NCBI GenBank assembly: GCA_049659625.1
Contig: JBASPX010000045.1
Span: forward strand, 96,317 to 160,316
Direction: 5' to 3'
Source: Candidatus Saccharicenans sp.
GTDB lineage: Bacteria; Acidobacteriota; Aminicenantia; Aminicenantales; Saccharicenantaceae
Length of the DNA stretch: 64,000 nt
Within the stretch, counting starts at the first letter, position 1, and each line of letters starts with the position of its first letter. A program made the position numbers and the translations under genes. Of this stretch, positions 6,750-53,467 are shown piece by piece. The notes beneath the pieces are model-generated. The model was given only the letters and a program-made list of their open reading frames with translations. It did not search any database and was not told where the DNA came from.

Positions 6750-8821
6750 CTGCAGGCCTCCGTTGAGTTTATGCTGCGGTCCTTACCTGCCCTGTTTCCA
6801 TTTACCCAGGGAAAACAGGTAATTCTCAACCTGGCGCAGCCCATCGGAATCAATCTGATATCTTCTTCCGCTGCTTCCGTCAGAACCGGACTCGGTGGAA
6901 CCCGGCCGACCATCCTGCCCTCTTCCTTCCACTGAGGCAACCTTTTCGCCCGGGCCTTCAAAACAAGCGGAGCTCTTTCAGAAGAAAAGGGCTGATAGCT
7001 TACCGGCCTTTTCTCCATCAGTTCGATTCCTTTTTCCGGTTTTTGCGGGTCAAGCACAAGAGCGTAATTCCAGGGCGAGGCGGGAAGAATCTCCCAGGCC
7101 GGCCAATCATCTGTGCCGCCTGCTCTCTTCCATTCTTCCTTTATCTCCAGCGAATACCAGAGAGGCCCCCGCCTGACGGAAGCTGCCTGCCCGAGGCCTG
7201 GCCAGAAATGAACTTTGACTGGCTGGTCGAGCACAAGCGTTATCCGGTCGCCATTTTTCCAGAATCTGCAAACAGCCGCATACTCTCCAGGATTTTTCAA
7301 CTCAACCTCTCTGCTGCCGTTAATAGAGAGCCAGGCTTTTTCCGCCCATCCGGGCAAACGGAGGTAGACAGGAAATTCGACCGGTTCTTCCAGGTAGAGG
7401 GTGAGGTCAATTCTAGTCTCAAACGGATAGTCGGTATCCTGAATGATCCTCGCGGGAATTCCTTTCTCTCCAGCTTTGAAAACGACCGTCGATGGACCGT
7501 AAAAAATCGCGGCTATGCCGCCATCGGGTGTGGCCAGCCAGAGATGTTCAACGTAATAAGGCCAGCCGAAAGCCACGTTATGCTGACAGCATCGATATTT
7601 CCAGGGGTCGTAGGAAACCAATGTTCCGGAATTCTGGAAATCATGTTCACCCGAACTGTCGCAGGAAATAAGGTTGGCTGCCGTCAGGTAATGCAACGCT
7701 TTCAGATCAGGTGTCAGAGCCGCCGGCAGAGAATTCAGAGCTATCTCTTCCGCCCGGTCAGCCTGAACCACCTCTCCCGTTATTTTCAGTAGAGACTCAA
7801 AACTGTTCATGAATTCGACCATGGTGCAGGTCTCGGCTCCCTGCCGGGGGTCGCTGTAACCAGGTCTTATGTTTTCATCAGCTCCGAACATACCTCCCGG
7901 CTGCTGGCCGTAAGAATCCATCACCTGACGGTAGTTACTTTCCACCGCTTCCAGAAGTCTTGCGTCTCCGCTTTGCTGAAAATAAACGGCCGGATATCGA
8001 AAACCCATGGCTATGTTAACCCCGTGGTAAAAGGAACTTTCTTTCCAGTTGCGATCACGCTCGGGAGTGAGGATGGGCGAAGCCCAGTCAGCTGTCCGCC
8101 TGTAGATTTTATGACCGAGTTCCAGCAGCCATTTCTCACCCGTCCGATTATAAAGCCAGTAAACGCTTTCCAGGTTTTCTCCGGCCCGCAATTTCTGCCA
8201 GCTTCCCGGGAAGAGCTTTTCCTCGGGCATCTGGAGCTGAAACCGGAAATAACCGGTCATAAAATCCAGAACCCGGCGGTCGGAAGTAAACTCATAATAA
8301 CTCTGCAGGCAGGCCAGCGCCACCATGTTAGGCCAGAGGTCGTTGTTAACTTTATTCTCTACCGGCCCGAAATATCCATCCGGCTGCTGGCTTTTCAAGA
8401 TGGCTTCCACCCATTTCCTGGAAGTGGCTATCATTTCAGGATCCTTCAGGAGATAACTGAGGTCGAGATATCCCTTCAGCCAGTAGGGCATCTCTTCCCA
8501 GCCCTTCCCTTTCAGGGTTAACCAGCCGGAATCTTCCCTGAGAAAAGGAGATATATCTTCCAGCCTGCCGGTCAGGCCCTCAGCCATGAGTTTCAGCTGA
8601 CTGAGGAGCCAGCCCCTGGGTTCTATCTGCCCTGGAGGAAGCTTAACGAGAGCATTCGGCTGTAGAGGCGGTTTGTTGCCCGTATAAAAAGGACTAAGCC
8701 GGTCAGATGGTGGAGTTTTTACCGTTTTAATTTCCATTCTAACGTTACTCCCGGAAGAAATGAAAGAAAGAGCAAAAAGCAGCCACAAAAAAAAGAATAC
8801 ATATTTGAATCGGGTCTGCAT
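6746..8821 (-). CDS. Secreted glycoside hydrolase of family 127/146 type (beta-L-arabinofuranosidase-like).
   Basis: Signal peptide. ETCTMVEF and RCCQHN segments fit the Glu/Cys...Cys-Cys zinc-ligand pattern of HypBA1-type GH127. This is a motif-level assignment only. Confidence 0.55.
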   Translation of the reverse strand: MQTRFKYVFFFLWLLFALSFISSGSNVRMEIKTVKTPPSDRLSPFYTGNKPPLQPNALVKLPPGQIEPRGWLLSQLKLMAEGLTGRLEDISPFLREDSGWLTLKGKGWEEMPYWLKGYLDLSYLLKDPEMIATSRKWVEAILKSQQPDGYFGPVENKVNNDLWPNMVALACLQSYYEFTSDRRVLDFMTGYFRFQLQMPEEKLFPGSWQKLRAGENLESVYWLYNRTGEKWLLELGHKIYRRTADWASPILTPERDRNWKESSFYHGVNIAMGFRYPAVYFQQSGDARLLEAVESNYRQVMDSYGQQPGGMFGADENIRPGYSDPRQGAETCTMVEFMNSFESLLKITGEVVQADRAEEIALNSLPAALTPDLKALHYLTAANLISCDSSGEHDFQNSGTLVSYDPWKYRCCQHNVAFGWPYYVEHLWLATPDGGIAAIFYGPSTVVFKAGEKGIPARIIQDTDYPFETRIDLTLYLEEPVEFPVYLRLPGWAEKAWLSINGSREVELKNPGEYAAVCRFWKNGDRITLVLDQPVKVHFWPGLGQAASVRRGPLWYSLEIKEEWKRAGGTDDWPAWEILPASPWNYALVLDPQKPEKGIELMEKRPVSYQPFSSERAPLVLKARAKRLPQWKEEGRMVGRVPPSPVLTEAAEEDIRLIPMGCARLRITCFPWVNGNRAGKDRSINSTEACR

Positions 8822-23941: not shown

Positions 23942-25017
23942 TTAGCCGGAGTGTTTACTTAGAAGATCCCTTCTTGCCGCCTCCATCAGCAGGAAGAAAG
24001 CCTGACCTTCTGTGGCCACCCCGGGCGATTGAAACAGCGGTGAACCGCAGACATCGTTAACATAGCCGTAAGAATCAACTTTTTTATGCACCGCCTCCCT
24101 CATCATCTCGGCCTTACTCAGATACTTCCGGTCCAGCCATCCAAGCTGTACATTGCGGTATATGGTGTAGGCCAGCATCTGGGCAAGATTTGTTTCCACA
24201 AAGCTCCGGGGATTGTCGAGAACGTCATGGAACAAACCGTCCTTGCGTTGATAACGGAGACAGCCGTCGAGGAGATTCTTTATGTATTTCCTCAGTTTTG
24301 CTTTTTCTTCTTTCATCTCTTCCGGCAGAGCCCGCAGGACTCTGGTCATCCCGGCCGCCGCCCAGCCGTTGCCGACGCCCCAGAAATCCTGTCTTTCAAA
24401 TTTCTTTTCCTGGTAGTCATAGATGTGAGAAAAGAGTTTTTTCTTTTCATCCCAGAGATATTTTCTTAACCCTTCAACCTGAAAAATGGCTTCACGGTAG
24501 TGGCCCATGACGGCCAGAAACGGGGGCACATATACATAGAATCAATCCAGAGTTGCTGTTTATTATCCAGATGAAAGATTACTCCATCATGGGTTCTGGG
24601 AGCTGTTTTTAAGAAATATTCCGCCTGTTTTCTGGCCGCTTCCAGCAGCCGTCCGTCTGAAAGCACCCGGCCGGCGTAAAGAACGGCTTCGCCGTTCGCT
24701 CCCGGGTCGGTCACCCCGTGGTTGTCGCAGACCTGCCCGAGCCTTCCGTCGTCCCACTGTCTGAGAACAGCTTCCCTGGCCATCATGATTACCAGATTTT
24801 CCTCACCGAGTTCCAGAAGGGCCTGAGCCGCAACACCCTGCTCCCAGGCATGGCGCTGCATGGTCAGCATCGCCATCTTAACCCGGTTGATGACTTCTCC
24901 AAGTCCCGTACCGCTGGAGCTCGCGCTTTTTACATCTCTTCCGGGAAGGCCGGAAGAATACTTCACCGGAAGAAGACCACCGGCCAGCATGGTCAGAAAA
25001 AAATTTCTCCTTTTCAT
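23942..25017 (-). pseudogene. GH105-family unsaturated rhamnogalacturonyl/glucuronyl hydrolase with a Tat signal, interrupted by a 1-nt frameshift in a G5/C5 run near 24522-24526.
   Basis: The upstream ORF ends ..QLWIDSMYMCPRFWPS and the downstream ORF starts (V)PPFLAVMGHY. One extra C would give WIDSMYMCPPFLA, which fits the GH105/GH88 WxDxxYM..PF region. The N-terminus has a Tat motif (MKRRNFFLTMLAGG). Confidence 0.55.
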
Positions 25018-26035: not shown

Positions 26036-27883
26036 TCAACCGGCAGAAACGCCTCCGCCACCACCGCCTCCTCCCCCTCCCCCGCTGAAGCCTCCTCCCC
26101 CACCCGAGGAATAGGCAGCAGCCCTCGCGCTGGCCTGGTTAAGAGCTGAAGCAGCTCTCTCAATCGAAGAGATGGCTGCGGAAATAGAATCGACCTGACG
26201 TCCGGCAACCGCCGCTCCCTGAATTCCCGCAACCCAGACCGCCGGCGCAGCCTGATCACTCTTGAGGACCCCGGGCAGCATCCGGATGAGTTTTTTTGCC
26301 TTTCCGAAAAGGATGGCAAAAACCAGATACTTCTCCCAGAGCCTGTATGCTTCAGGGGGAATTTCAGAAAACTCTGAAAAATCATCTAAAAATCTTTCCA
26401 GCGCCTTCCATAGCTCGTTTTCTCTTGCCCAGTCCTTATGCCGTCTCTTGAGCTTTGGACAGAGTACAAGGCTCATGACAAAAAGCACCGGTGACAGAGT
26501 GAGGACAGCCACGACCAGACTTACCGCCAGAAAAATGCGGCTCAGCCGCCAGCTGCGCGGTTCGACAAACCCGAGTTTTTTCCCTTCCTTAAACACCTCT
26601 TCCTGCCATTTACGGAACCAGCTCTGGTATTCCGCCGGATGCTTTTTTATATAATCCACCAGGTTATCCAGAGTTATCCGCTGTACCGAGCTCACTTCAC
26701 AGCCGGCCCGGGCAAAAAGGTAATCGAGCGTCTGTTTTTCCCAATCTCTGAGCGACGGATCAGTTTTATAATCTTTCTTAAGCTGAAAAACCGTCTGTTT
26801 TTTTGCTTTCGTTCCCGAGAGCGTCTTTTTTTCTATCTGCTCTTCTCCTATCGCCAGGTAGCCTCTGGTGGCCAGGTCAAAAATGGTGGCGGTAAAGGCG
26901 ACCGGCAGCGGCTTTTCTCCCTCTCTCATCAGCACCTGGACCAGAGCCGGCGGCAGCGCCGAAGGCATCTCCCGGAAATATTCCGGAATGTCGTCAAAGC
27001 GGTAATCCCGTCCGTACCTTTTCCAGAGATGAAAATAAACCAGAAGCCAGAGAAGCGGCCCGATAATCTGCCATCCAGTCCAGAGCAGCCCGACCTTTTT
27101 CAAGACCTCTGCCTGACGGGCTTCTCTCTCCTGAGCCTGCCTCACCCTCCGGATGGTTTCTTCCACGAAAGCGGCTTCCTCTTCTTTTATTTTCTCCAGC
27201 GTATAGCCTGAAGCCGGAACTCCCTGCACCATCCCGGCCGGCCAGACCACCCTTATTTCCAGAAACTGTCTGGCTGGAATATTGCTGGCTTCAAACCTCA
27301 CTGTCTTTAAGTCAACAATTTCCGCCCTTCCGGAAAGCGGTCCATGTCCGTAAACCAGAAGATCTTCTTTCCGGCTCACCGGTCCAGGCAGATGGACGAA
27401 AATCTCAGCCCTGGCTGTCGGCCGGTCCACCTCGCTTCCTATAACCTGCCAGTAGAGCTCGCTTATTTCCGGGTAATTTATTATCCCGTTCCTCACACGG
27501 TAAGTTATCCTGAATGTCCTTCGCTCGTTTCTGGCTGAAAATCGCCATCTTGCCCTGAACCTGCCGTCTTCTACCGTCGATTCCACCGGAAGGTCCCGCC
27601 CGTTTTCGTCCCTGACACGAAAATCCTCAATGCTGACCTGAAGGTCTAAATTCTTCCTGGCTCTCAACGGAATCCAGAGAGAAGCCCAGGAAAACTGTCC
27701 GCGGAACTCAAAGGTCAGGTATTCATCCACCTCAAAAGAACCGTCGCCGCAGATATGAATATCAGCTTTAAGTTCAGGGAAATAATAATTTTTGCTTTCA
27801 GCCGCCAGAAAAGATACTCCCGCTGCCACCAGCAGGAAGAATACCAGCCAGAAACGCCAGCTGATAGAGATTCTCTTTTTCAT
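26036..27883 (-). CDS. DUF2207 family membrane protein.
   Basis: Signal plus an extracytoplasmic N-domain, a transmembrane segment, a cytoplasmic region, a second transmembrane segment, and a C-terminal poly-Gly tail (SSGGGGGFSGGGGGGGGGGGVSAG) typical of DUF2207. Confidence 0.7.
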   Translation of the reverse strand: MKKRISISWRFWLVFFLLVAAGVSFLAAESKNYYFPELKADIHICGDGSFEVDEYLTFEFRGQFSWASLWIPLRARKNLDLQVSIEDFRVRDENGRDLPVESTVEDGRFRARWRFSARNERRTFRITYRVRNGIINYPEISELYWQVIGSEVDRPTARAEIFVHLPGPVSRKEDLLVYGHGPLSGRAEIVDLKTVRFEASNIPARQFLEIRVVWPAGMVQGVPASGYTLEKIKEEEAAFVEETIRRVRQAQEREARQAEVLKKVGLLWTGWQIIGPLLWLLVYFHLWKRYGRDYRFDDIPEYFREMPSALPPALVQVLMREGEKPLPVAFTATIFDLATRGYLAIGEEQIEKKTLSGTKAKKQTVFQLKKDYKTDPSLRDWEKQTLDYLFARAGCEVSSVQRITLDNLVDYIKKHPAEYQSWFRKWQEEVFKEGKKLGFVEPRSWRLSRIFLAVSLVVAVLTLSPVLFVMSLVLCPKLKRRHKDWARENELWKALERFLDDFSEFSEIPPEAYRLWEKYLVFAILFGKAKKLIRMLPGVLKSDQAAPAVWVAGIQGAAVAGRQVDSISAAISSIERAASALNQASARAAAYSSGGGGGFSGGGGGGGGGGGVSAG

Positions 27884-27968
27884 TTTTTCTCACTCATACT
27901 GTGCGCTTAAACCCGGAAATCATAAAAGAAGTTTACAGTCTTTCAGTCATACGTGTTTTTTTCAGGGA

Positions 27969-28319
27969 TCAGCGAGAGAGAACTTTCCGGTAAACATGTT
28001 CGAGCAGATGGACACGACTCTGCGGGTCGAGCTCAATAAATTCCAGACCCATCTCAAACACTTCCTCATCAAAAAGACTTTTCACCCAGCGAACTTCGGC
28101 TATTCCGGTGATCAATTTTTTCGATTCGCTCAGAGCGATTTCCAGTCTGACCCTGGTTTTTACCGGAAGCGGCTGATCGGTCATGATTCTTAAACCGCCG
28201 ACCGAAATATCCCGGGAAAACGAATAAAAAGATTCTTCCTGGGGCTGGCCGCTCTCTCCCAGAACGTAAAGAACCACCTTGTTTTCCTCATCAAGCCTTT
28301 TTTCCCTTCTTTTTTCCAT
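27969..28319 (-). CDS. PilZ-domain c-di-GMP binding protein, about 116 aa.
   Basis: RxxxR (EKRREKR) and D-x-S-x-GG (DISVGGLRI) c-di-GMP binding motifs. The start is taken at the internal MEKRREKR; the longer ORF extension is low-complexity. Confidence 0.7.
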   Translation of the reverse strand: MEKRREKRLDEENKVVLYVLGESGQPQEESFYSFSRDISVGGLRIMTDQPLPVKTRVRLEIALSESKKLITGIAEVRWVKSLFDEEVFEMGLEFIELDPQSRVHLLEHVYRKVLSR

Positions 28320-28416
28320 GGTGCTGGAAATGAGAGACCTCCTTTGCCTTTTTTTCTTTTCTATCACAGCGAACAGAAAATAGCAATAAAATTTTTTCTG
28401 CCAGCTGAAGCAAAAG

Positions 28417-28443
28417 TTGACAAAAAAAGGTGAAAAAAATAAT
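28417..28443 (+). promoter_or_regulatory. Putative sigma70 promoter: TTGACA, 15 bp spacer, AATAAT.
   Basis: A -35 at 28417-28422 and a -10 at 28438-28443, about 40 nt upstream of ATG 28483, which has an AAGGAG RBS. Confidence 0.35.
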
Positions 28444-28482
28444 CTGCTTAATAAGAAAAATTTAAAGGAAAGGAGCGTGCGG

Positions 28483-29703
28483 ATGAGTGTTAAATTCAGG
28501 TTAAGCGCGATGATGTTCCTGCAATATGCCATCTGGGGGTCCTGGGCCCCGGTGCTGTCTGCTTACCTTCAGAATAATCTGGGGTTCAGCGGCAAGGAAC
28601 TCGGTATTATCTTCAGTCTCCTGCCTCTGGCCACCATCATCTCTCCCTTCCTCGGCGGTCAGATAGCTGATCGTTATTTCCCGAGCGAAAAGGTAATAGC
28701 CGTGCTGCAGCTGGCGGGTGGAGTGCTGCTCATCCTGATAGCCGGAGTCACCGATTTTCGTCTGATGGTCTGGCTGATGCTTTTTTATTGCCTGGTTTAT
28801 GCTCCCACTCTGGCCCTGACCAATTCCATCGCCTTCGTCAACCTGAAAGACCCGGAGAAAGAATTCGGTGCTATCCGGGTCTGGGGTACGATCGGCTGGA
28901 TTGCCGCCGGCTGGGCTCTGGCTGGCTGGCGCTGGCTGGTAAAGTCGCCCGAAGAAATTGCCATGAAGGGCGATACCCTGATTTTAGCGGGGATTTTTTC
29001 CATCATCATGGGCCTTTATTCCTTCAGTCTTCCCCACACCCCGCCGCAGAAAGAAGCGGCCAAGCCCTGGGCTTTTCTGGAAGCCCTGAAGATGCTCAGG
29101 GACAAAAACTTTCTGGTTTTTGCCATCATCTCTTTCGTTGTGGCCACCGAACTTCAGTTTTACTATGTTCTTACTTCTCCTTTCCTTACCCAGCATGTCG
29201 GGGTCAGTCAGAAATTGGTACCTTTTGTCATGACCATCGCTCAGATAGCCGAAATCTTCGTCATGGCTTTTATGCTCAGCTGGGCTCTTAAAAAATTCGG
29301 CATGAGAATGACCCTGACTCTGGGAATTTTAGCCTGGCCGATTCGCTACATCATTTTCGTCATCGGCCAGCCCTCCTGGCTGGTAATCGCTTCGCTGGCC
29401 CTCCATGGCTTCTGTTACGTTTTCTTCTTCACCGCCGCTTACATCTACGTCGACAACATCGCTCCACGTGACATCCGTCATTCAGCTCAGAGCTTAATCG
29501 CCACCATAATCCTCGGGTTTGGTAACTTCGTCGGCAGTCTTTTCTGCGGCTGGATTCAGGACCTCTTTACCAGAGACGGTGTGGTTAACTGGAGGGGAAC
29601 CTTCTTAGTGCCGACGGTGCTAACCCTGCTGTGTCTTATTGTTTTCCTGGCCTTCTTCCGGGAAAATAAAGCCGGCACCCGGACTGAAACTGCTACCGTC
29701 TGA
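28483..29703 (+). CDS. MFS transporter of the nucleoside:H+ symporter (NupG/XapB/YegT) family.
   Basis: Twelve transmembrane segments and an N-terminal region (FLQYAIWGSWAPVLSAYL) typical of the NHS family. Start chosen at the ATG with an AAGGAG RBS. Confidence 0.65.
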   Translation: MSVKFRLSAMMFLQYAIWGSWAPVLSAYLQNNLGFSGKELGIIFSLLPLATIISPFLGGQIADRYFPSEKVIAVLQLAGGVLLILIAGVTDFRLMVWLMLFYCLVYAPTLALTNSIAFVNLKDPEKEFGAIRVWGTIGWIAAGWALAGWRWLVKSPEEIAMKGDTLILAGIFSIIMGLYSFSLPHTPPQKEAAKPWAFLEALKMLRDKNFLVFAIISFVVATELQFYYVLTSPFLTQHVGVSQKLVPFVMTIAQIAEIFVMAFMLSWALKKFGMRMTLTLGILAWPIRYIIFVIGQPSWLVIASLALHGFCYVFFFTAAYIYVDNIAPRDIRHSAQSLIATIILGFGNFVGSLFCGWIQDLFTRDGVVNWRGTFLVPTVLTLLCLIVFLAFFRENKAGTRTETATV

Positions 29704-29753
29704 TCGGGCAAGAAATTTTTTAATAAAAAATAAAAATCAAAAGGAGAGCAAAA

Positions 29754-31010
29754 ATGAAGCAACGTAAAAAAACACTGGGTGTGGGTTTTATTGGCGGAGG
29801 CTTTATAACCAGATTCCATATAAGGTCCTGGGTCGGAGTTAGAAACGCCGACATCCTGGGCATTTACGACCCTGACCAGAAAAGAGCCGGTGAAGCCGCT
29901 TCGCTCTCCCGCAAATTAAAGGTGGGCGAAGCCAGGCCCTACAAATCGATCACAGAAATGGTGGCCGACCCGAACATCGACGCCATCTGGATCTGCTCGC
30001 CGAATTACACCCGGATTGAAGTCATGGAAGAGATTGCCGAAGCCGTCCTCAAAGGAAAAGGCGAATTAATCGGCGTAACCTGCGAGAAACCACTGGGTCG
30101 AAACGTGAAAGAAGCCAGGAAAATGCTCCAGCTGGTGCAGAAAGCCGGTCTGCTCGACGGCTACCTGGAAAACCAGGTTTTCGCTCCGGCAGTCGTCCGC
30201 GGCAAAGAGATCATCTGGGCACGCGGGGCCAGTCTCTGCGGCCGTCCTTACCTGGCCCGGGCAGCCGAGGAACACAGCGGACCGCATATGCCCTGGTTCT
30301 GGGAAGGTGAACTGCAGGGAGGTGGCGTGCTTAACGATATGATGTGCCATTCAGTGGAAGAAGCCCGGTTCATGCTGACGCCTCCCGGAGCCAGCCGGGA
30401 TGAACTGACGCCGGTGAAGGTTACCGCTTACGCCAGCTGCCTGAAGTGGCAGATCCCGGAATACGTCGAACACCTGAAACGCATCAGCGGCGGACGCCTC
30501 GATTATGCTAACCGGCCGGCGGAAGATTTCGCCCGCTCGGTTATCGAATACCGCGACAAACAGGGAAATATTTTAGTGGTTGAGACCACCACCTCCTGGT
30601 GCTACGTTGGAGCCGGACTGCGTTTGACCATGGAACTTCTCGGCCCCGAATATTCGCTCCAGATTAACACCTTAGACTCCGGACTGAAAGTTTTCTTCAG
30701 CCGCCGGGTGAAAGGAAAAGCCGGCGAAGACCTGGTGGAAAAGCAGAATGCCGAGGTCGGTCTGATGCCGGTGGTGGCCAGCGAGGAACATGAATACGGT
30801 TACACCAGCGAAAACAGGCATATGGTCGAATCGTTCCTTGAGGGCCGGCGTCCGATGGAAAACTTCAGCGACGGTGTGAACGTCACCGAACTGCTGATGA
30901 CCGCTTACATGAGCATCGAGAAAGATAAAACGATGCCCTTCCCGCCACCGGGGCTGGAGAATTTTGTGCCGGCCGTGGCTAAGGGCCAGTGGAACCCGAG
31001 AAAGAAATAA
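29754..31010 (+). CDS. Gfo/Idh/MocA-family NAD(P)-dependent oxidoreductase.
   Basis: N-terminal Rossmann motif GVGFIGGGFITRFH and the EKP motif of the family (CEKPLG). Confidence 0.85.
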   Translation: MKQRKKTLGVGFIGGGFITRFHIRSWVGVRNADILGIYDPDQKRAGEAASLSRKLKVGEARPYKSITEMVADPNIDAIWICSPNYTRIEVMEEIAEAVLKGKGELIGVTCEKPLGRNVKEARKMLQLVQKAGLLDGYLENQVFAPAVVRGKEIIWARGASLCGRPYLARAAEEHSGPHMPWFWEGELQGGGVLNDMMCHSVEEARFMLTPPGASRDELTPVKVTAYASCLKWQIPEYVEHLKRISGGRLDYANRPAEDFARSVIEYRDKQGNILVVETTTSWCYVGAGLRLTMELLGPEYSLQINTLDSGLKVFFSRRVKGKAGEDLVEKQNAEVGLMPVVASEEHEYGYTSENRHMVESFLEGRRPMENFSDGVNVTELLMTAYMSIEKDKTMPFPPPGLENFVPAVAKGQWNPRKK

Positions 31011-31067
31011 TCGCTCATCCGGCCATTGCTTAAAAATTAAGAAAAATATGTTTTGCCGGAGGCAAAT

Positions 31068-32561
31068 ATGAAACAAAAGAGAAGGACCTTTGTGTCTGCT
31101 TTGACGATTTTATGTCTGCTGGCCGCAAGCACCCTTTTCCTGACGCTTCAGACCAAGGCGCAGGAAAAGATCATCCCGGAAGAAATAAAAAGGCAGGTCA
31201 GCAGCACGGATTATTCTTCCGTCAGAATAAAAAAATTTCCGCTGGCGGTGCAGTGCTGGACCTACCGCGGCTACACTTTTTTCGAAGCGCTGGAAAAGGT
31301 TAAAGCTCTGGGTATAGATTACGTTCAGGCATATCCCGGACAGAGGCTTTCCAGGGATCTGCCGCCGAACGTCGTCTTCAACCATAACCTCGATGAACAG
31401 CACTTAAAGCTCGTGCGGGAGAAACTCAATTCTCTGAAGATGAGCGTGGTGGCTTATGGCGTGGTTGACACCGGCCGCACAGAAGAGGAAATGAGGAAGG
31501 TTTTCGATTTTGCCCGCAAACTGGGGATCCGGGTGATAGTCACCGAACCCCGCGATGAAGATTATCCCGTCCTGAACAAACTGGTGAAAGAATACGACCT
31601 CAGAGTGGCCATACACAACCACCCCGAACCCAGCAAGTATGCCCATCCGGCCACAGTCCTTAAATACCTGAAGGAAGCCGATGAAAGAATTGGCGTCTGC
31701 GCCGACACCGGTCACTGGATGAGAGGGAACCTGCTGCCGGTTGAATGTCTCAGAATGTTAGCCGGCCGCATCTATGACGTTCATCTTAAGGACCGTAGCG
31801 ATTTTGGCACGAAAAAGGCGGAGGACGTGGCTTTTGGAAGCGGTCGGGCAGACATCAGGAAGGTGCTGGCCGAGCTCACCCTTCAGGATTATGACGGCTT
31901 CCTGACGTTCGAGTACGAAAACGAAAAGGAGGTTATGACTCCGGAGCCAGCGATAAAAAAAGGAATTGAGTTCATAAGAAGTGTTACCTACTATGAAGGC
32001 TACGAACAGTTGCTCAGCCGGTATCGAGGCCGTTATGAAAAACACGGCTGGAATCATTACGGACCTGGCTATTTTGAACTCGACCCGAAGACCGGAATTC
32101 TGAAGTCTCAGGGCGGCATGGGACTGCTCTGGTACAGCCGGAAAAAATTCAGGGATTTTGTTCTCGAGCTGGAGTTTAAGTGTTCCCGCAAAGACACCAA
32201 TTCAGGCGTTTTTCTCCGTGTGCCGGAAGTCCCGACCAGCGACGATTACATCTATCATTCGTTCGAAATCCAGATTTATGACGCCGGTGAAGGCATCCAC
32301 ATGACGGGTGCAGTTTATGACGCCCAGGCTCCCGCTCGCCTGGCTTCAAAGCCAACCGGCGAGTGGAATCATTTCCGGATTTCCTTCATAGGTGACCGAA
32401 TAACCGTCGAGCTCAACGGGGAAAAGGTGGTCGACTGGAAAGCAGAACCCCGGGGCAAGGTAAAAGATTTTGCCCGGGAAGGTTACATCGGACTGCAGAA
32501 TCATGACAGCCTGTCTCCGGTCTACTTCAGAAACATCTACATCAAAGAAATCAACAACTGA
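31068..32561 (+). CDS. Secreted fusion of a sugar-phosphate isomerase/epimerase-like (xylose-isomerase-like TIM barrel) domain with a DUF1080 (3-keto-disaccharide hydrolase / LamG-like) domain.
   Basis: Signal peptide, possibly Tat (KRRTFVSAL). TIM-barrel region IHNHPEP..GVCADTGHW. The C-terminal DUF1080 pattern is GWNHYGPGY..LWY..FVLELEFK..NSGVFLR..EIQIYD..GLQNHDS. A GGAGG RBS precedes ATG 31068. Confidence 0.7.
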   Translation: MKQKRRTFVSALTILCLLAASTLFLTLQTKAQEKIIPEEIKRQVSSTDYSSVRIKKFPLAVQCWTYRGYTFFEALEKVKALGIDYVQAYPGQRLSRDLPPNVVFNHNLDEQHLKLVREKLNSLKMSVVAYGVVDTGRTEEEMRKVFDFARKLGIRVIVTEPRDEDYPVLNKLVKEYDLRVAIHNHPEPSKYAHPATVLKYLKEADERIGVCADTGHWMRGNLLPVECLRMLAGRIYDVHLKDRSDFGTKKAEDVAFGSGRADIRKVLAELTLQDYDGFLTFEYENEKEVMTPEPAIKKGIEFIRSVTYYEGYEQLLSRYRGRYEKHGWNHYGPGYFELDPKTGILKSQGGMGLLWYSRKKFRDFVLELEFKCSRKDTNSGVFLRVPEVPTSDDYIYHSFEIQIYDAGEGIHMTGAVYDAQAPARLASKPTGEWNHFRISFIGDRITVELNGEKVVDWKAEPRGKVKDFAREGYIGLQNHDSLSPVYFRNIYIKEINN

Positions 32562-32563
32562 CA

Positions 32564-35500
32564 CTAAAAGCCCGGAGTGATGGTGAACTGCCAGTGCCAG
32601 CCCTTCCCCGGGCGGCTGAACGGATAGACGTAGTCAAAGCCGAGCACCAGCACTCCAAAAAGGTTGGTTCTAAGTCCGACTCCGGTGCTGGATACCGGTT
32701 TCTTCTCGCCGCCAAACCAGCTGGGCTTCTCCCCGCCATACCAGGCGGTGCCGATGTCGTAAAAGGCCAGAAATTCCAGCGGCCAGACGCCATAGTATCC
32801 TCTGCCGATCCCGAGAACCCTGAAGACAGGAAACCTCAGTTCGACGTTGGCCACCAGCATTCTGGAGCCCAGCAGGCGATTGAAATCAAAATAATCACTT
32901 GAGTTTTCATCAAACTCATTGTAATTGAAGCTGTTATAATCATATCCCCTGACCAGCGTTTCATAGCCGAGGAAAAGAGGCCAGAGACGTTGGTCGTTTC
33001 CTCCCTTTCCGTAGCGTCCATAATGCAGAACTCTGAAAGCAAAGGTGAAAGGTTTGGCCGGTATTATGTATCTCCGGTAATCAGCCAGCAGGCTGACGAA
33101 GTTCAGGTCTCCAAAGTTCGGCTGAACCTCGAGCAGGTAAGCCTGGCCGGTAATCGGACTGCAGGCACCGAAGAGCGAACTGTCGTATACCAGCGCGGCC
33201 GATACGTATCCGTATTTTATCGACGGAGGCGATGGCAGGTCGAGACGGTAAAGGTCGATCAGCATGAAATCGAGAGTGTAAATGTAACGTGTTAATCTCG
33301 AATTAAAGTCGATCAGATTAAAGCCTGCGGAAAATTCAACCCTTCTGAATACGTTAAACGGGTAGTAGGCAAAACCGCTCAGTTGATAGGCAATCTGACG
33401 GTTGAGATACTCTTCCTCAACGTAAACGGGAACGCCTCCCATTTCAGTGTAATAAGCGCCGTAAGAGCCATAAACATAAGGCACCCGCTGGAGGACCGCT
33501 CCCCAGTTCACCCGGTTTCTTGCGTTCATGTAGCCGACCAGAGCAAAACTGTCAATCAATTCGTAGTTGGTCTGGGCCATGGTCACCACTGTATGATAAC
33601 CGAGCATATCGCTCCAGAAAGCGGCTATGCCTCCGCCGGCGTAAGTCCCGTAGCGGTCAACGCCAACAGCCAGAGTGGGTCGGGTGATGTAGTCGAGAGA
33701 AAGTTTTGGCCGATAACCGGTTACAGGAAAGTCAGTTTCCCTCGGAAGTCCGTACAGAGGATTTCTTAACAGCCCGAGCAGGGCTCCTTCCGGCTGGGTT
33801 CTCGGCGGCAAAAGATTCAACGGTCTCTCTCCAAATTGAGCGATGGTCGGCTGTCCCTGGAGTTTTTCCGGTGAATCAATTAGATATATGGAGTAACTCC
33901 CGTTTTCATACACTGAAAGTGCCAGCCGCCGGCTGCCCTGAGAATAGGAAATAGCCGGGCTGAGCTCGGTTATCCCGCTGATGCCGGTAAACAGGTTGCT
34001 GAGCTGATAGATTTTCCCGTCCCTGAGGTCAACACGATAGAGGTCTGTTTTCCCGGTGTAATCAGAAAGGAAAAACATGCTCTGACCATCTTCTGACCAC
34101 TGCGGGTTGACATTCTTGCCGGAGGGAAATGCCAGAACTCTGGTAATCTGACCGGTTTCAACATCCAGCAAGCCCAGGTCGTAATTTCCGGGATCGAGCC
34201 ACTGCAGATTAGCGCTGAATCTTTCGGTGACAAAAGCTATCTTTTTGCTGTCTGGAGACCAAACCGGCTGTAGGTCGCCAAAACTATCTCTGGTCATCTG
34301 CTTTACCGTGTTATCTTCAAGGTCATAAATATAGATATCGGTTACCCCTCCAGAAAGAGCGGCAAAGGCAATTTTCTTTCCGTCCGGCGACCAGGATGGA
34401 TGCAGAATTTCTCCCAGCTCAGGAAAAGGAATTTCTCTTTCGATTTTCCCGGTCAGAGCATTCATGATGGTCAGCTGCGGCCGTCCCCTGCTAACGGTTC
34501 CAAGCACGATTCTCTGGCTGTCGGGCGCCCAGGCTCCGGCTGACCTGATGAATTGAATGCTCTCGAAATGGGGGTCTATGTCAGTTGAAGTGAGCTTCCT
34601 CAGAATCTTTCCGGTCTTCGGGTCTGCCAGATAGAGGTCAACCGAGAAAAGAGCTCGCGATGAAAAGAAAATCATGTGCTCCCCGTCCGGGCTTAAAACC
34701 GGGGAGATGTTGTAAGGGTTTTCTTCCAGGCCTTTGACCAGAAGACGTCCGAGACGATCCGGGGTTTCTGTCAGCGGAACCAGGCCTTTATAGGCTTCCT
34801 CCATTGATTTATGCCAGTCTTCAGAAAGCTTTTTAAGCGGTACTCCGAGAACTCCCTGAAGCACCGATTCATAGTCTCCACCCCGGGCAAGCATCCGGAA
34901 AATTTTGCCGATCATTTCATCTCCCCAGCGGCCGCCGATGTAAGCCCAGACTGCATGTCCGTATCTATAGGGGAAGTAACGGTAATAGTTCTCCAGCTTC
35001 CTGATCTGAGGCAGGTCTTTCCTCTTCCAGGTATCCCTCATCCACATTGAAGTCTGGGTGTCAACCGGCCCGATGGAGAGATATTCGGACAGACCCTCTA
35101 TCAGAAAGAGAGGGACCCTCAGCTCCGCCCCGGTGTATCTGGCCTGGTCCGAATGACCCTGACCGGCAATATCGTACTGAAAGGCGTGCACCAGCTCATG
35201 ACCGATGACATGGTCAGTTTCAGCCATGGAAACGCCGTACGGCAGAACTATTCTCCTCTTAAAGGATTCAGTCACGCCCCCTGTTCCTTCTCCCAGAGTC
35301 TCCGGGATGACGGTGGTTTGCTGAAATTCAGGGCTGCTGGAATAAATGATCAGGGCCTGCCGCCCCTTCAGTTCATGGTTGAAGATGCGGCTCAACCGGG
35401 CATACCAGCGCTCGGCCATCATCGCCGCCTGCTTTACCACTTCTTCATCTTCCTGGTAGAAATAGACATCAAAATGCCTGGTCTTCATTATTCTGAAATC

Positions 35501-36687: not shown

Positions 36688-37989
36688 ATGCTTTTCAGGA
36701 CACTGCTGATAGCAGCCATTATCATCGTATTTTACTCGCTGGCTAAATGGCGGAAACTCTCGGTGGAATTGAGCCTGCTGGCCGCTACCATCGGGGGAGC
36801 TCTGGCCGGTTCCATTTTCAGCTCGCCGCCGCCCGCAGAAATCCCGAGACATCTGGTTGAAGGCTCGTTTACCTATCTTGATGTCATCCTGGTTTTTTTT
36901 ACGGCCACCCTGTTCATAACGATCATCCAGAAATCTGGAGGAGTTGACTTTGCCGTCCGCCGCACCGTCGTTCGTTTTTATCGTTCCCGATTCCTGGCCC
37001 TGTTACTGCTGATGGTGATTGTTCTTATTCCCGGCGCTCTCACCGGAGCCGGCAGCGTTTCTCTACTGGTGGTGGGAGCTCCGGTGGCCCTGGCACTCAG
37101 AGGTCTCGGGGTTGAGGAAAAGAAAATCCCGGCGATTCTTTTTATTCTGGCCGGGCTGGCCGCCGCCGCTCCTCCGGTAAACATCTGGGCTATGATGCTG
37201 TGCGCCGGCACGGCCATTCCCTATGTCGGTTTTGAACTGCCGCTCGGGCTTCCGGTCATCATCCTCGGCATCCTGACTGTGGCAATCCTCGGAAGAAGGA
37301 AAGGCGCGGCGGAAATAGATTCTTTCCTGGAAAAGATAACCCCGCATCCGGGGATGAACTGGCTCCGGCTGCTCCTGCCGTTTCTGGTGTTCTTCGGTCT
37401 GGTTCTCGCCTACCGGCTATTTCCGTTCAACTTCCCTGTGCTCGGACTTCCTCTGGAATTCCTCACAGCTTCTCTTGTAGCTCTGGTTCTGAGTCCGGTC
37501 AGGTTGAACTTAATAAGGGTCGCTTCAGAGACCCTGCGCAAGTTGCTGCCGCTTCTGGCCATCATGGTGATAGTTGGCATGCTGCAGCAAATTCTTTCAG
37601 CCAGCGGGGTCAAGGGACTTATTTCTTATTCTGTTCTTATCATTCCGCTTGGACTTCTTTTCTGCCTGTTGCCCGTGATCATACCGGTTTCTGAAGGCGT
37701 TTTAACCTACGGCGGAGCGGCCATAATCGGCATTCCGCTCGTCTGGTATCTCAACTCTCTTGGCTACCACGCGACCGTGGTCATCTCCGGGCTCAGCCTT
37801 CTCTGGCCCCTCGGAGATGGGTTGCCTCCAACCGCTCTGATCGGAAGGTTGAGCGTGATGGTTTCAGGATATCAGGGTAAATACTGGCAGTTTCTTAAAG
37901 AAACCTGGATTCCCTGGTTGATAATCACGGCTACCGGTATGTTGATGATCATTTTCAGCGCAAAGCTTAAATTCCTGGTAACGGGATGA
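36688..37989 (+). CDS. Polytopic membrane permease (ion-transporter-superfamily / TRAP DctM-like fold). Substrate unknown.
   Basis: More than 10 predicted transmembrane helices and a Gly/Ala-rich composition. No catalytic motifs. Confidence 0.45.
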   Translation: MLFRTLLIAAIIIVFYSLAKWRKLSVELSLLAATIGGALAGSIFSSPPPAEIPRHLVEGSFTYLDVILVFFTATLFITIIQKSGGVDFAVRRTVVRFYRSRFLALLLLMVIVLIPGALTGAGSVSLLVVGAPVALALRGLGVEEKKIPAILFILAGLAAAAPPVNIWAMMLCAGTAIPYVGFELPLGLPVIILGILTVAILGRRKGAAEIDSFLEKITPHPGMNWLRLLLPFLVFFGLVLAYRLFPFNFPVLGLPLEFLTASLVALVLSPVRLNLIRVASETLRKLLPLLAIMVIVGMLQQILSASGVKGLISYSVLIIPLGLLFCLLPVIIPVSEGVLTYGGAAIIGIPLVWYLNSLGYHATVVISGLSLLWPLGDGLPPTALIGRLSVMVSGYQGKYWQFLKETWIPWLIITATGMLMIIFSAKLKFLVTG

Positions 37990-38175: not shown

Positions 38176-38186
38176 AGGATTTGGTC

Positions 38187-50949: not shown

Positions 50950-52248
50950 ATGTTCAGGAATCATCCGCGTTCCCTGGTGTACATCTTTCTCACCGAGATG
51001 TGGGAAAGGATCGGATTTTACACGCTGATGGCCATTCTGGTTCTTTACATGGACCAGGTTCTCGGCTGGAGCGATTCAAGCAAGGGTAACTGGTACGGTC
51101 TGTTCCTTGGTCTTTGCTACCTGTTTCCCCTGATTGGAGGCTGGCTCGGCGACCGGGTGTTAGGTCGTCTGAGAACTGTAAGAATCGGGGCGGTCCTGAT
51201 GGCTCTGGGTTACATCGGCCTGGCTCTTTCTTCAGTTTCACAGACGATAACCTTCAAGCTCGGACTCCTGCTGATAGCCATCGGGACAGGCATTTTCAAG
51301 GTTAACATGTCGGTGCTGGTGGGAAACATTTACCAGGATCGTCCCCAGCTCAAAGATGCCGGTTTTAACATTTTTTATATGGGAGTGAACCTGGGAGCGA
51401 TGCTGGCTCCCCTGATCGCCACCCTCAACAACGCGGTGTTTCACAGCTACCATCTGTCGTTCTGGGTTTCTGCTTTCGGACTGATTCTGGCTCTGACCAT
51501 ATTCCACTCCGGTAAAAGATATCTGGAACCGGCTGATGACCTGATTTCAAAAAAAACAGGTCTGAATAATCCCGAAGGTATCCAGACGAGCCATCCTGAC
51601 GAAAAGGAAGATACAGAAAATTTCCGTGAAAGAATAATCGCTCTGTCGATCCTTTTTTCCATCGTCATTCTCTTCTGGCTGGCTTTCTATCAGAATGGTT
51701 TCGCCCTGACCCTTTTCGCTGTCCGGTCCACCATGATCCTCAGCTGGCTGCGCCCGGAAACCTACCAGTTTTTCGAGCCGTTCTTCATTCTGGTGCTGAC
51801 TCCCCTGCTGCTCATGGTTTTCGCCAGATTGAGAGGTATCGGCAAAGAACCTTCCACACCGCGCAAAATCTTTTTCGGCATGATTTTCATGACTGGAGCC
51901 ATGCTGATCATGGTCGTGGCCTGCCTTCGTGGAGGCAATCAGGACGTTAACATCATGTCGCCGCTGTGGCTGATTTCCACTTATTTCGTGGTAACCATCG
52001 CCGAAATTCTGATCTCTCCGATGGGTCTTTCCTTTGTCTCCAAAGTGGCGCCGGCCAGAATCAGAGGTTTGATGATGGGCGGCTGGTACCTGGCAATTTC
52101 CCTCGGCAGCTACGGAAGCGGATTGCTCGGTAAACTCTACAGCCGTTTTCCCCACCATCAATTTTTCCTGATTCTGGCCGGGTTGCTGTCTCTGGCTGCC
52201 ATCCTGGTGCAGCTTTCGATGAAAAAGCTGGAAAAATATTCTCGCTGA
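50950..52248 (+). CDS. POT/PTR2-family proton-dependent oligopeptide transporter (MFS).
   Basis: ERIGFYTLMAILVLYM and GGWLGDRVLGRLRTVRIGAVLMALGY PTR2 signatures. Confidence 0.75.
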   Translation: MFRNHPRSLVYIFLTEMWERIGFYTLMAILVLYMDQVLGWSDSSKGNWYGLFLGLCYLFPLIGGWLGDRVLGRLRTVRIGAVLMALGYIGLALSSVSQTITFKLGLLLIAIGTGIFKVNMSVLVGNIYQDRPQLKDAGFNIFYMGVNLGAMLAPLIATLNNAVFHSYHLSFWVSAFGLILALTIFHSGKRYLEPADDLISKKTGLNNPEGIQTSHPDEKEDTENFRERIIALSILFSIVILFWLAFYQNGFALTLFAVRSTMILSWLRPETYQFFEPFFILVLTPLLLMVFARLRGIGKEPSTPRKIFFGMIFMTGAMLIMVVACLRGGNQDVNIMSPLWLISTYFVVTIAEILISPMGLSFVSKVAPARIRGLMMGGWYLAISLGSYGSGLLGKLYSRFPHHQFFLILAGLLSLAAILVQLSMKKLEKYSR

Positions 52249-52270
52249 GCATTAAATCAGGAGAAAGGCT

Positions 52271-53467
52271 ATGTTTGAAGAACACGTTCTGATTAAAGAA
52301 AAAACTTCTCAGGCGATAAAAATTCTGCAGGAACTCGACCTCGACTGCTGGATCACCTTCACCCGGGAAAGTGAAATCTGCGGCGACCCGGTGCTGGTGT
52401 TCCTGGCTCCCTCGCCCGTCACCTGGCATTCAGCCTTCATCATTACAGCAGACGGGCAGAAAAAAGCCATCGTCGGGCTTTACGATAAAAGATCCATAGA
52501 AGACACAGGTGCCTATGATTCTGTGGAAGGATACGTAACCGGGATAAAAGAACCTCTGCAGAAATTTTTAAGTTCGTTGAATCCCCGCCAGATCGCCATA
52601 AATTTTTCACGGACCAGCGAAATCTGCGACGGGCTGACCCATGGAATGTACCTGACGCTTTATGACTATCTTAAAGAAATCGGCCTGGAAAACAGACTGG
52701 TTTCAGCCGAGAGGTTAATCTCCGCCCTGAGAGAAAGAAAAACTCCGTATGAAATCCAGGCCATCAGAAAAGCGATAGAAGTCACCGAAGAAATTTTTCA
52801 CCTGGTGCAGAACTATATAGCTCCTGGCAGAACCGAAAAAGAGATAGCTGCTTTTATGTTGGAAGAAGTGAAAAAACGCGGTCTAAAAACCGCCTGGAGT
52901 CAGGCTACCTGTCCTGCGGTTTTTACCGGTCCGGACACCGCTCAGGCCCATTATGCCCCGACCGACAGGGTTGCCAGCCGGGGGCACATCCTGAACATGG
53001 ATTTTGGAGTCAAAGTGGAAAATTATTGTTCAGATATGCAGAGGACTTTTTACCTGCTGGAGGAAAACGAAACCTCAGCTCCATCGGAGGTGCGGAAAGG
53101 CTTCGAGACGATAGTGCGGGCAATCGAAGAAGCCAGAAAAGCCATGAAGCCCGGGGTGATCGGTCTGGAAATTGACAGAGTGGCCCGTGAAATCGTTACC
53201 TCTTCCGGCTATGACGAGTTCCCGCACGCTCTCGGCCATCAGGTTGGAAGATTCGCCCACGACGGAACAGCTCTTCTTGGCCCGGCCTGGGAGAAATATG
53301 CCGACAAACCGTTTCGTCCGCTCGAACCCGGGATGGTGTTTACGCTGGAACCCAGGCTAACCGTGCCCGGACGCGGCGTGGTGACCATCGAAGAGATGGT
53401 TCTGGTTACAGAAAAAGGAGCTGAATTTTTGAGCCACCCCCAGACCGAGCTGATTCTGATCGGTTAA
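52271..53467 (+). CDS. M24-family Xaa-Pro peptidase (prolidase / aminopeptidase P-like), cytoplasmic.
   Basis: HALGHQVGRFAHDG metal-binding region and the two-domain creatinase/prolidase layout. GGAGAAAGG RBS. Confidence 0.85.
   Translation: MFEEHVLIKEKTSQAIKILQELDLDCWITFTRESEICGDPVLVFLAPSPVTWHSAFIITADGQKKAIVGLYDKRSIEDTGAYDSVEGYVTGIKEPLQKFLSSLNPRQIAINFSRTSEICDGLTHGMYLTLYDYLKEIGLENRLVSAERLISALRERKTPYEIQAIRKAIEVTEEIFHLVQNYIAPGRTEKEIAAFMLEEVKKRGLKTAWSQATCPAVFTGPDTAQAHYAPTDRVASRGHILNMDFGVKVENYCSDMQRTFYLLEENETSAPSEVRKGFETIVRAIEEARKAMKPGVIGLEIDRVAREIVTSSGYDEFPHALGHQVGRFAHDGTALLGPAWEKYADKPFRPLEPGMVFTLEPRLTVPGRGVVTIEEMVLVTEKGAEFLSHPQTELILIG

Follow-up and report, generated by a model that had tools for sequence, protein, structure and literature searches.

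Organization of the locus

The stretch of DNA analyzed here, 64,000 nucleotides of contig JBASPX010000045.1 from Candidatus Saccharicenans sp. (Acidobacteriota, Aminicenantia), is referred to as the window. Three close-packed genes on its + strand, at positions 28483-32561, encode a transporter of the major facilitator superfamily (MFS), an oxidoreductase of the Gfo/Idh/MocA family (Gfo) and an exported protein in which a TIM barrel is fused to a DUF1080 domain (the fusion, FUS). The intergenic gaps are 50 and 57 bases, and an AGGAG or GGAGG site is found ahead of each of the three genes. The open reading frame of the fusion extends over 31053-32561, and its likely start is the ATG at 31068, which has GGAGG in front of it. 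The features of the locus are listed below.

28483-29703, + strand: first gene of the trio, YegT-like MFS transporter of the NHS (nucleoside:H+ symporter) family, 406 residues (PF03825)
29754-31010, + strand: second gene, Gfo/Idh/MocA oxidoreductase, 418 residues (PF01408, PF22725)
31068-32561, + strand: third gene, TIM barrel-DUF1080 fusion, 497 residues (PF01261, PF06439)
31068-31169, + strand: signal peptide of the fusion, approximately residues 1-34
31230-31985, + strand: TIM-barrel domain of the fusion, approximately residues 55-306, of the 3p6l/4kw2/3lmz subfamily
32001-32552, + strand: DUF1080 or '3-keto-disaccharide hydrolase' domain of the fusion, short type, approximately residues 312-495
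27969-28406, - strand: PilZ-domain gene, divergent from the MFS gene (PF07238, E 6e-13)

The divergent PilZ gene is the upstream limit of the trio. Its downstream limit is a convergent gene for a 1029-residue peptidase-MA/PD40 protein, the stop codon of which is 2 bases from that of the fusion. A scan of positions 27800-32900 for promoters and terminators gave numbers no better than those for shuffled sequence (4 versus 2.8 promoters and 11 versus 7.6 terminators).

The closest locus is that of a Candidatus Saccharicenans metagenome-assembled genome (MAG), with identities of 98% for the MFS transporter, 100% for Gfo and 96% for the fusion, and nearly all close homologs come from Aminicenantes MAGs. 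In a scan of one genome per species, 558 relatives of the fusion were recovered; the 80 best loci were taken for analysis, and their gene arrangements were established by tblastn.

The exported fusion protein

The proteins with which the fusion is best compared belong to a pathway described for Alistipes and Bacteroides (Nasseri et al., bioRxiv 10.1101/2024.03.25.586180). AL3/BT3 is a Gfo protein with tightly bound NAD, which is exported by the twin-arginine translocation (Tat) route and oxidizes glycosides at C3. AL1/BT1, a secreted TIM-barrel 'sugar phosphate isomerase', is a 3-keto-β-glucoside 1,2-lyase with Co2+, and AL2/BT2, a DUF1080 lipoprotein, is both a 3-keto-α-glucoside lyase and a 2-hydroxy-3-keto-glucal hydratase. 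These two act in the periplasm, whereas AL4/BT4, a second Gfo that is dispensable in vitro, is cytosolic.

An initial annotation of the window, made without database searches, had described the product of 31068-32561 as an exported fusion of a TIM barrel and a DUF1080 domain. Profile searches bear this out, because both domains score far above their Pfam gathering cutoffs. PF01261 (AP_endonuc_2) matches residues 75-305 (E 6.8e-22, 78.8 bits against a cutoff of 31.1), and PF06439 (3keto-disac_hyd) matches residues 327-493 (E 6.5e-38, 131.1 bits against 26.8), so that the C-terminal domain is indeed DUF1080. The N-terminus has the appearance of a signal peptide: MKQKRR is followed by a hydrophobic stretch of about 20 residues and by TKA/QE, giving the signal MKQKRRTFVSALTILCLLAASTLFLTLQTKA, then QEK. 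A hydrophobic N-terminal signal is present in 80 of 80 homologs, some of which have a lipobox Cys. The RR pair is not conserved, being replaced by KK, RK or K, and the signal is therefore of the Sec or lipoprotein type, not Tat. For the same reason a Tat signal on the fusion, with Gfo as a hitch-hiking partner, was ruled out. The AlphaFold2 (AF2) model of the whole fusion has a pLDDT of 91.6 and a pTM of 0.88; residues 2-33 form a lone helix of low confidence. The pTM value suggests that the TIM and DUF1080 domains are held in a fixed orientation relative to each other.

The fusion is not a peculiarity of the window. There are 1862 homologs at E<=1e-10, and both domains are present in all of the best 120. 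A HMMER search of 1.84 billion cluster representatives produced 322 matches at E<=1e-30, and full-length TIM+DUF1080 proteins belong to several of these clusters, in which they are only 35-42% identical to the window protein. This recurrence in divergent clusters argues that the two domains are functionally coupled and belong to the same pathway. More elaborate architectures were found as well, including a TIM barrel with two DUF1080 domains, forms of about 1330 residues with N-terminal HEAT repeats followed by TIM and DUF1080, and proteins in which three or four TIM barrels of the same subfamily follow one another. Examples of the elaborate proteins are P0375 and P0379 (about 1330 residues), P0361 (674 residues) and P0363 (1049 residues). 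No described TIM-DUF1080 fusion was found in the literature searched, nor was the five-gene cassette discussed below or its three-gene reduced form. The type of pathway is already known, and the Pfam architecture is present in databases under generic names.

The similarity of the TIM domain to AL1/BT1 is marginal (E 2e-3). Its residues H183, H185, D213 and H239 are invariant. In the alignment to AL1 they pair with three metal residues, H178, D211 and H237 (for H183, D213 and H239, respectively), and with the substrate residue H180 (for H185), and E282/E284 fall at the strand of the AL1 catalytic Glu. The domain belongs to an uncharacterized 3p6l-like subfamily that is remote from the known lyases, and its metal-site residues are intact. 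Such a fold would be expected to perform metal-dependent proton abstraction beside a sugar carbonyl, and does not tell the exact reaction.

The nearest solved relatives of the DUF1080 domain are the unannotated Parabacteroides distasonis structures 3imm, 3s5q, 3h3l and 3u1x (the last with a Foldseek E of 1e-14). They are followed by the AL2 hydratase 8v31 (4e-13), the eliminase/hydratase structures 9fbe/8rr2 (~1e-12) and BT2 (8tda, 2.5e-12; BT2 is also represented among the matches by 3osd). Among 57 fusion proteins, N378-S-G, E400-x-Q402, D418 and Q477-N-H479 are invariant and Y417 is nearly so. These motifs correspond to the conserved N134, E164/Q166, Y190 and Q273/H275 of BT2. The domain thus qualifies as a candidate 3-keto-α-glycoside lyase / 2-hydroxy-3-keto-glucal hydratase by domain and motifs only.

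The same residues bear on the possibility that the fusion acts in the periplasm on a free sugar or sugar derivative instead of 3-keto-glycosides, its TIM barrel being a keto-sugar isomerase, epimerase or dehydratase and DUF1080 a mere binding module resembling carbohydrate-binding module family 66 (CBM66). We regard this as unlikely, because the invariant N378, E400-x-Q402 and Q477-x-H479 are the reported metal/active site of BT2, and because the exported dehydrogenase encoded next to the fusion in some relatives (see below) points to 3-keto-glycosides. A conventional glycanase has also to be considered. The name used in the source annotation is 'family 16 glycoside hydrolase', and one DUF1080 protein is reported, as cited in PMC9007349, to be an endo-xanthanase/lichenase. 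Were the fusion a GH16-like (glycoside hydrolase family 16) enzyme, or a DUF1080 endo-xanthanase/lichenase like THTE_1561, Gfo and the MFS transporter would be unrelated neighbors. This is very improbable. The GH16 motif E-[ILV]-D-[IVAF]-[VILMF]0-1-E is absent from the fusion, where the matching strand reads F-E400-I-Q-I-Y-D-A, as in BT2, in which the GH16 catalytic motif has likewise been lost. Moreover, the trio is kept together while the genes that flank it change.

The adjacent oxidoreductase

The product of 29754-31010 matches PF01408 (E 1.7e-19, 71 bits against a cutoff of 24) and also PF22725. Its GxGxxG motif starts at residue 11 (G11-x-G-G-G-F), and all homologs begin about 8 residues before this motif. 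There is no space for a signal peptide so near the N-terminus, which makes Gfo a cytoplasmic protein, and no signal peptide was found on any of about 54 homologs. Asp39, at the end of strand β2, suggests NAD rather than NADP as the cofactor. The motifs E111-K-P (C110-E-K-P) and D195-M-M-C-H199 are invariant in the alignment, the latter being the catalytic D-x3-H pair that corresponds to Asp248/His252 of AL3. None of the curated NCBIfam cutoffs is approached: the scores are 69.5 bits for IolG (cutoff 355), 54 bits for levoglucosan dehydrogenase (cutoff 650) and 17.9 bits for BT_2158_fam, the family of glycoside 3-dehydrogenases (cutoff 750), and there is no match to NF058563 (BT_2159_fam) at E<0.01. 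The identity of Gfo over the loci is 71-100%, above that of the fusion (57-96%). The best 120 matches in a search for Gfo homologs are all from Aminicenantes and 79-100% identical, and are uninformative on function. An AF2 model of Gfo, calculated with 21 close homologs, had a pLDDT of 44.9 and was unusable. No further homolog of this Gfo was detected by tblastn in the 64-kb window.

The initial annotation implied that Gfo is the glycoside 3-dehydrogenase that provides the fusion with its substrate, and it does sit directly upstream of the fusion gene, in a pair that is strongly co-conserved. For this to work, Gfo would have to be co-exported or the fusion would have to stay on the cytoplasmic side. 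Several features speak for such an arrangement: the shared D-x3-H pair, the RR in the signal of the window fusion, and the best solved relatives of Gfo, 6jw6 and 6nor (E 1e-19 to 1e-18), which we take to be the aminoglycoside 3''-dehydrogenases KanD2 and GenD2, enzymes that oxidize a glycoside C3-OH. However, Gfo homologs are devoid of a signal peptide, proteins with a Sec or lipoprotein signal are unable to take a folded partner along, the scores against BT_2158_fam and BT_2159_fam are those given above, and in 16 of the 80 relatives, as well as in KSB1 and Gemmatimonadota, the oxidase role would be taken in cis by another, BT_2158-like and Tat-exported Gfo. With Gfo in the cytoplasm and the fusion outside it, the former is quite unlikely to supply the latter with 3-keto-glycoside, and this part of the annotation is not supported. 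Instead, we infer that Gfo is a cytoplasmic 3-keto-hexose reductase. The assignment is founded on compartment, gene order and the precedent of Agrobacterium, sequence alone being insufficient.

The transporter

The product of 28483-29703 matches PF03825 (Nuc_H_symport) with an E of 3.6e-113, and scores 311 bits against TIGR00889, under the cutoff of 446. Among solved structures it comes closest to E. coli YegT (8zoj, E 2e-69), with NupG (1e-47) next. In the alignment to NupG, residues R136, T140, Q225, Q261 and E264 are kept, whereas N228 is replaced by Y, Y318 by H and D323 by V. The GxxxD motif reads LHGFC[YF]V in this clade; the residue in the window protein is V313, and Val occupies the position in 52 of 52 homologs, although the partner Glu of that Asp (NupG E264) is retained. 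The Asp of this NHS-family motif (NupG D323, YegT D315) has been described as the protonation site, so that the clade may have a different transport coupling or may consist of facilitators. A published comparison notes that YegT, too, is without the uridine contacts F143, Y318, F322 and N228 of NupG. Retention of the ribose-contact residues together with loss of the base-contact residues fits a sugar as the substrate of the window transporter. Since 3-keto-glucose is reported to be largely in the furanose form, one may speculate that a pocket of the ribose type is compatible with 3-keto-glucofuranose.

The family of the transporter had led the initial annotation to hint at a nucleoside substrate, and these replacements of the base contacts and of the protonation Asp weaken the hint. 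In a fuller version of the same idea, the trio would be a nucleoside or inositol catabolic cluster, made up of an NHS nucleoside importer, an IolG-like dehydrogenase and an IolE-like dehydratase. The PF03825 match, the conserved ribose contacts of NupG, and the fact that IolG (69.5 bits) and IolE (35.9 bits) are the top NCBIfam matches are in its favor. Yet the scores are far under the curated cutoffs (355, 290 and 446), NupG N228, Y318 and D323 are not conserved, and no nucleosidase, phosphorylase or other iol genes were found nearby. Furthermore, IolE acts in the cytoplasm, as part of the iol pathway, whereas the TIM domain of the fusion is exported. We give a cluster of this kind hardly any credence.

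Conservation of the gene cluster in related genomes

The gene orders found at the 80 loci are as follows, where TatGfo denotes a second Gfo with a Tat signal and DoxX a membrane protein of the DoxX family.

MFS-GFO-FUS: 40 of 80 loci
DoxX-TatGfo-MFS-GFO-FUS: 11 of 80 loci
DoxX-TatGfo-FUS: 4 of 80 loci
DoxX-TatGfo-MFS-FUS: 1 of 80 loci
MFS-FUS: 6 of 80 loci
GFO-FUS: 3 of 80 loci
FUS alone: 15 of 80 loci, 7 of these at contig ends

The Gfo gene is directly upstream of the fusion gene in 54 loci, and also in a contig of KSB1; the pair is thus co-conserved. In 58 loci the MFS gene is found upstream of it, whether or not the Gfo gene intervenes. The flanks vary: the Saccharicenans clade has genes such as DUF2207 and a peptidase there, other loci dnaA/dnaN, ApbE or rnf, and the core stays together.

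In 16 of the 80 loci the genes for DoxX and TatGfo are located immediately upstream, on the same strand. The TatGfo protein has about 535 residues and a conserved twin-arginine motif, (G/R)RRD(I/V)LK..PVFG. Its best NCBIfam match, far ahead of any other, is NF058561, BT_2158_fam glycoside 3-dehydrogenase, with 127-134 bits (E 1e-37 to 1e-39), below the cutoff of 750. The presence in cis of a BT_2158-like, Tat-exported Gfo ties the cassette to the oxidation-elimination-hydration pathway of Bacteroides and Alistipes. The link to oxidative 3-keto chemistry that the initial annotation had proposed is thus borne out by this dehydrogenase, as well as by the superposition of DUF1080 on AL2/BT2 and the eliminase/hydratase structures; the role that it implied for the adjacent Gfo is the part that is not supported.

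In all three phyla the DoxX-family protein, of about 170 residues, always precedes TatGfo, and it may be the partner, at the membrane or quinone level, through which the exported dehydrogenase is re-oxidized. Examples of its gene are L056:296-820, L082:2443-2958 (KSB1) and L081:7462-8004 (Gemmatimonadota); the other loci are L024, L045, L046, L048, L051, L052, L058, L060, L064, L066, L069, L072 and L077. The KSB1 contig has the order DoxX-TatGfo-MFS-Gfo-FUS, with identities of 64%, 74% and 60% to the MFS transporter, Gfo and fusion of the window. On the Gemmatimonadota chromosome CP070722.1 the genes code for a TIM barrel with a Tat signal (of another subfamily), ApbE, DoxX, TatGfo, MFS (65%) and Gfo (69%); the gene of the flavin transferase ApbE adjoins that of DoxX. 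Across the three phyla the cassette proteins are 60-74% identical, as similar as they are within Aminicenantes. Such identity suggests that the cassette has been transferred horizontally or else that contigs were mis-binned.

Other genes accompany the cassette in part of the loci. In seven loci (L034, L037, L041 at 6117-7694 on the - strand, L065, L067, L075 and L079), the window locus not being one of them, the opposite strand carries a gene for an FGGY-family sugar kinase just downstream of the fusion. It would fit phosphorylation of a hexose product. In 25 loci PilZ homologs adjoin the MFS or the fusion gene. Both orientations occur, since the Saccharicenans clade has the gene divergent and other loci have it co-directional; the tblastn match of the window PilZ frame to these homologs begins at its residue 43. 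The PilZ gene is a conserved neighbor, and a regulatory link to the trio through cyclic di-GMP is possible. A downstream gene of 713-796 residues in about 10 loci, which at first appeared to be a second fusion-like gene, codes for an S9 oligopeptidase, and had been clustered with the fusion through a chimeric read-through frame in L038.

A putative pathway

From these comparisons we lean toward the view that the trio is one unit, and that it represents the downstream half of oxidative, non-hydrolytic glycoside cleavage of the BT2156-2159/AL1-4 type. The first step would be the periplasmic oxidation of a glycoside at C3, a task that in the relatives would fall to the Tat-exported Gfo encoded just upstream. 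In the host of the window, the oxidase might be encoded elsewhere in the genome, or 3-keto-glycosides might come from other cells. In the second step, the fusion would cleave the 3-keto-glycoside by 1,2-elimination and hydrate the 2-hydroxy-3-keto-glucal so formed, giving a 3-keto-hexose. The metal-dependent TIM domain would perform one of these two reactions, and DUF1080 the other or both. Fusing the domains would hold the reactive enone intermediate between two neighboring active sites. The YegT-like MFS transporter would then import the 3-keto sugar, and finally the cytoplasmic Gfo would use NAD(P)H to turn it into an ordinary hexose, which can be fermented. The transporter is the obvious connector between the compartments of the exported fusion and the cytoplasmic Gfo. 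What we infer from the comparisons described above includes all of the catalytic activities, what the transporter carries and which way the Gfo reaction runs.

Several observations weigh against this interpretation. A tblastn search detected no homolog of the Tat-exported Gfo anywhere in the 64-kb window, so that the periplasmic oxidase is absent there; a DoxX homolog was not found anywhere in the window either. There is no Saccharicenans among the named best 120 homologs of the Tat-exported Gfo, which is weak evidence. Taken together, the two results for the oxidase leave the first step of the pathway unaccounted for in the host. Besides, in eight loci with adequate flanks the fusion gene is accompanied by none of the partner genes, and the cytoplasmic Gfo, to judge from its profile scores, lies outside the BT_2159 family and under every curated cutoff. 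The largest gap of the model is the source of the 3-keto-glycoside in the host, and the second largest is which reaction the TIM domain performs.

The cassette might also run without an oxidase of its own, a variant that we consider rather improbable. It could take one of two forms. In the first, the host would scavenge 3-keto-glycosides or 2-hydroxy-3-keto-glucal given off by its neighbors, which would amount to a cross-feeding niche built on oxidized sugars. In the second, the MFS transporter and Gfo would serve as a redox shuttle: the trans-membrane exchange of 3-keto sugar and hexose would connect the NAD pool of the cytoplasm with the NAD(H) that periplasmic glycoside dehydrogenases bind tightly. 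A transporter that is without the proton-coupling Asp and retains the furanose-binding triad could suit 3-keto-glucofuranose in such a shuttle, and DoxX in the relatives could be a second route, at the level of the membrane. Either form, if true, bears on how periplasmic 3-keto enzymes are re-oxidized in anaerobes.

The oxidative 3-keto route has recently been worked out in gut Bacteroidota and in Agrobacterium, and its reach in environmental anaerobes is unmapped. The locus described here is a compact and apparently transferable cassette in uncultured phyla (Aminicenantes, KSB1 and Gemmatimonadota), in which a lyase-type and a hydratase-type domain share one exported polypeptide that goes with a putative dedicated importer and a putative cytoplasmic reductase. 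If the proposed pathway is true, it would give a function to a TIM subfamily whose structures (3p6l, 4kw2 and 3lmz) have been functionless since 2010-2013, would suggest the first non-nucleoside substrate for YegT-like transporters, and would supply the missing link from periplasmic 3-keto-hexose to central metabolism. It would also flag DoxX as a candidate re-oxidation partner of Tat-exported Gfo dehydrogenases, and would mean that counts of carbohydrate-active enzymes alone overlook this glycan-degrading route in these subsurface lineages.

The wider neighborhood

The neighborhood of the trio is geared to the use of peptides more than to that of glycans. It has three Peptidase C69 paralogs, of which two lie in tandem with a DUF6305 gene behind them. 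Also encoded are a POT peptide transporter, an M24 peptidase, a beta-lactamase-fold protein and aminotransferases; the regions concerned are 39414-43552 (+ strand), 50950-53467 (+ strand) and 54818-56455 (- strand). Glycoside hydrolase (GH) genes of families GH127 and GH20 are merely scattered, and the window shows no organization like that of a polysaccharide utilization locus. A GH88 (unsaturated glucuronyl hydrolase) gene at 23942-25017 (- strand) consists of two overlapping open reading frames, of 183 and 195 residues, in different frames. Their overlap contains a run of five C near 24520, and the gene is either a frameshifted pseudogene or the product of an assembly error. Downstream of the trio, a 433-residue polytopic membrane protein that has no Pfam match (36688-37989, + strand) is paired with an AstE/AspA-like protein of the succinylglutamate desuccinylase/aspartoacylase fold (38181-39353, + strand). 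This pair travels near the fusion in 25-29 loci, in both orientations.

Comparison with known 3-keto sugar systems

The closest known systems are BT2156-BT2160 of Bacteroides thetaiotaomicron and AL1-AL5 of Alistipes, from gut Bacteroidota (10.1101/2024.03.25.586180; Liu et al. 2021, PMC8121099). The folds are the same, namely an exported TIM barrel, an exported DUF1080 domain and a cytosolic Gfo, the active-site motifs of the DUF1080 domain of BT2/AL2 are kept in the fusion, and relatives of the window locus add a Tat-exported Gfo for which BT_2158_fam is the best curated match. There are also differences. TIM and DUF1080 are in one polypeptide here, and the TIM domain is of another, 3p6l-like subfamily. 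The cytosolic Gfo is analogous to BT2159/AL4 in position and compartment, and is not its ortholog. The unit includes an MFS importer of the NHS family, DoxX stands beside the Tat-exported Gfo in the relatives, and the Tat-exported oxidase is wholly missing from the window. The SusR-like/DUF6377 regulator (AL5/BT2160) was not found among the flanking genes scanned (PilZ, DUF2207, peptidase). The hosts differ too, since the window belongs to an anaerobic Aminicenantes lineage of subsurface or thermal habitats.

P. distasonis has single-domain relatives of both halves of the fusion, all of them structures of the Joint Center for Structural Genomics with no assigned function: 3p6l (BDI_1903), 4kw2 (BDI_1873) and 3lmz for the TIM barrel, and 3u1x (BDI_1869), 3imm, 3s5q and 3h3l for DUF1080. 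BDI_1869 and BDI_1873 are four locus tags apart and may be an unfused version of the pair.

The transporter shares its fold and family with E. coli YegT and NupG (NHS family, TC 2.A.1.10), and the NupG ribose-contact triad R136/T140/E264 is present in it. It differs in having Val in place of the protonation Asp, in its base-contact residues and in its gene partners, which are sugar-oxidoreductase genes, not nucleoside genes.

A similar combination of genes is known from E. coli. YcjS is a Gfo-family D-glucoside 3-dehydrogenase, and in the ycj cluster it is accompanied by a xylose-isomerase-like TIM barrel, YcjR (3-keto-D-glucoside 4-epimerase, PDB 6wn6), which is the same pairing of folds as in the window. 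Caulobacter cannot grow on lactose without a transporter and a sugar reductase encoded beside lacABC, which the authors suggest handle 3-keto-galactose (PMC9007349).

The proposed logic of elimination, hydration and reduction by NADH is shared with the Agrobacterium tumefaciens operon, which consists of GlycDH, the TIM β-eliminase AtOGE, the TIM hydratase AtHYD and a Gfo reductase that acts on 3-keto-glucose. In a one-pot reaction, this Gfo with NADH, AtOGE and AtHYD converted 3-keto-phlorizin to glucose (Bitter et al. 2023, PMC10628242). AtOGE and AtHYD are TIM-barrel metal enzymes that act on 3-keto sugars, as the TIM domain of the fusion is proposed to do.

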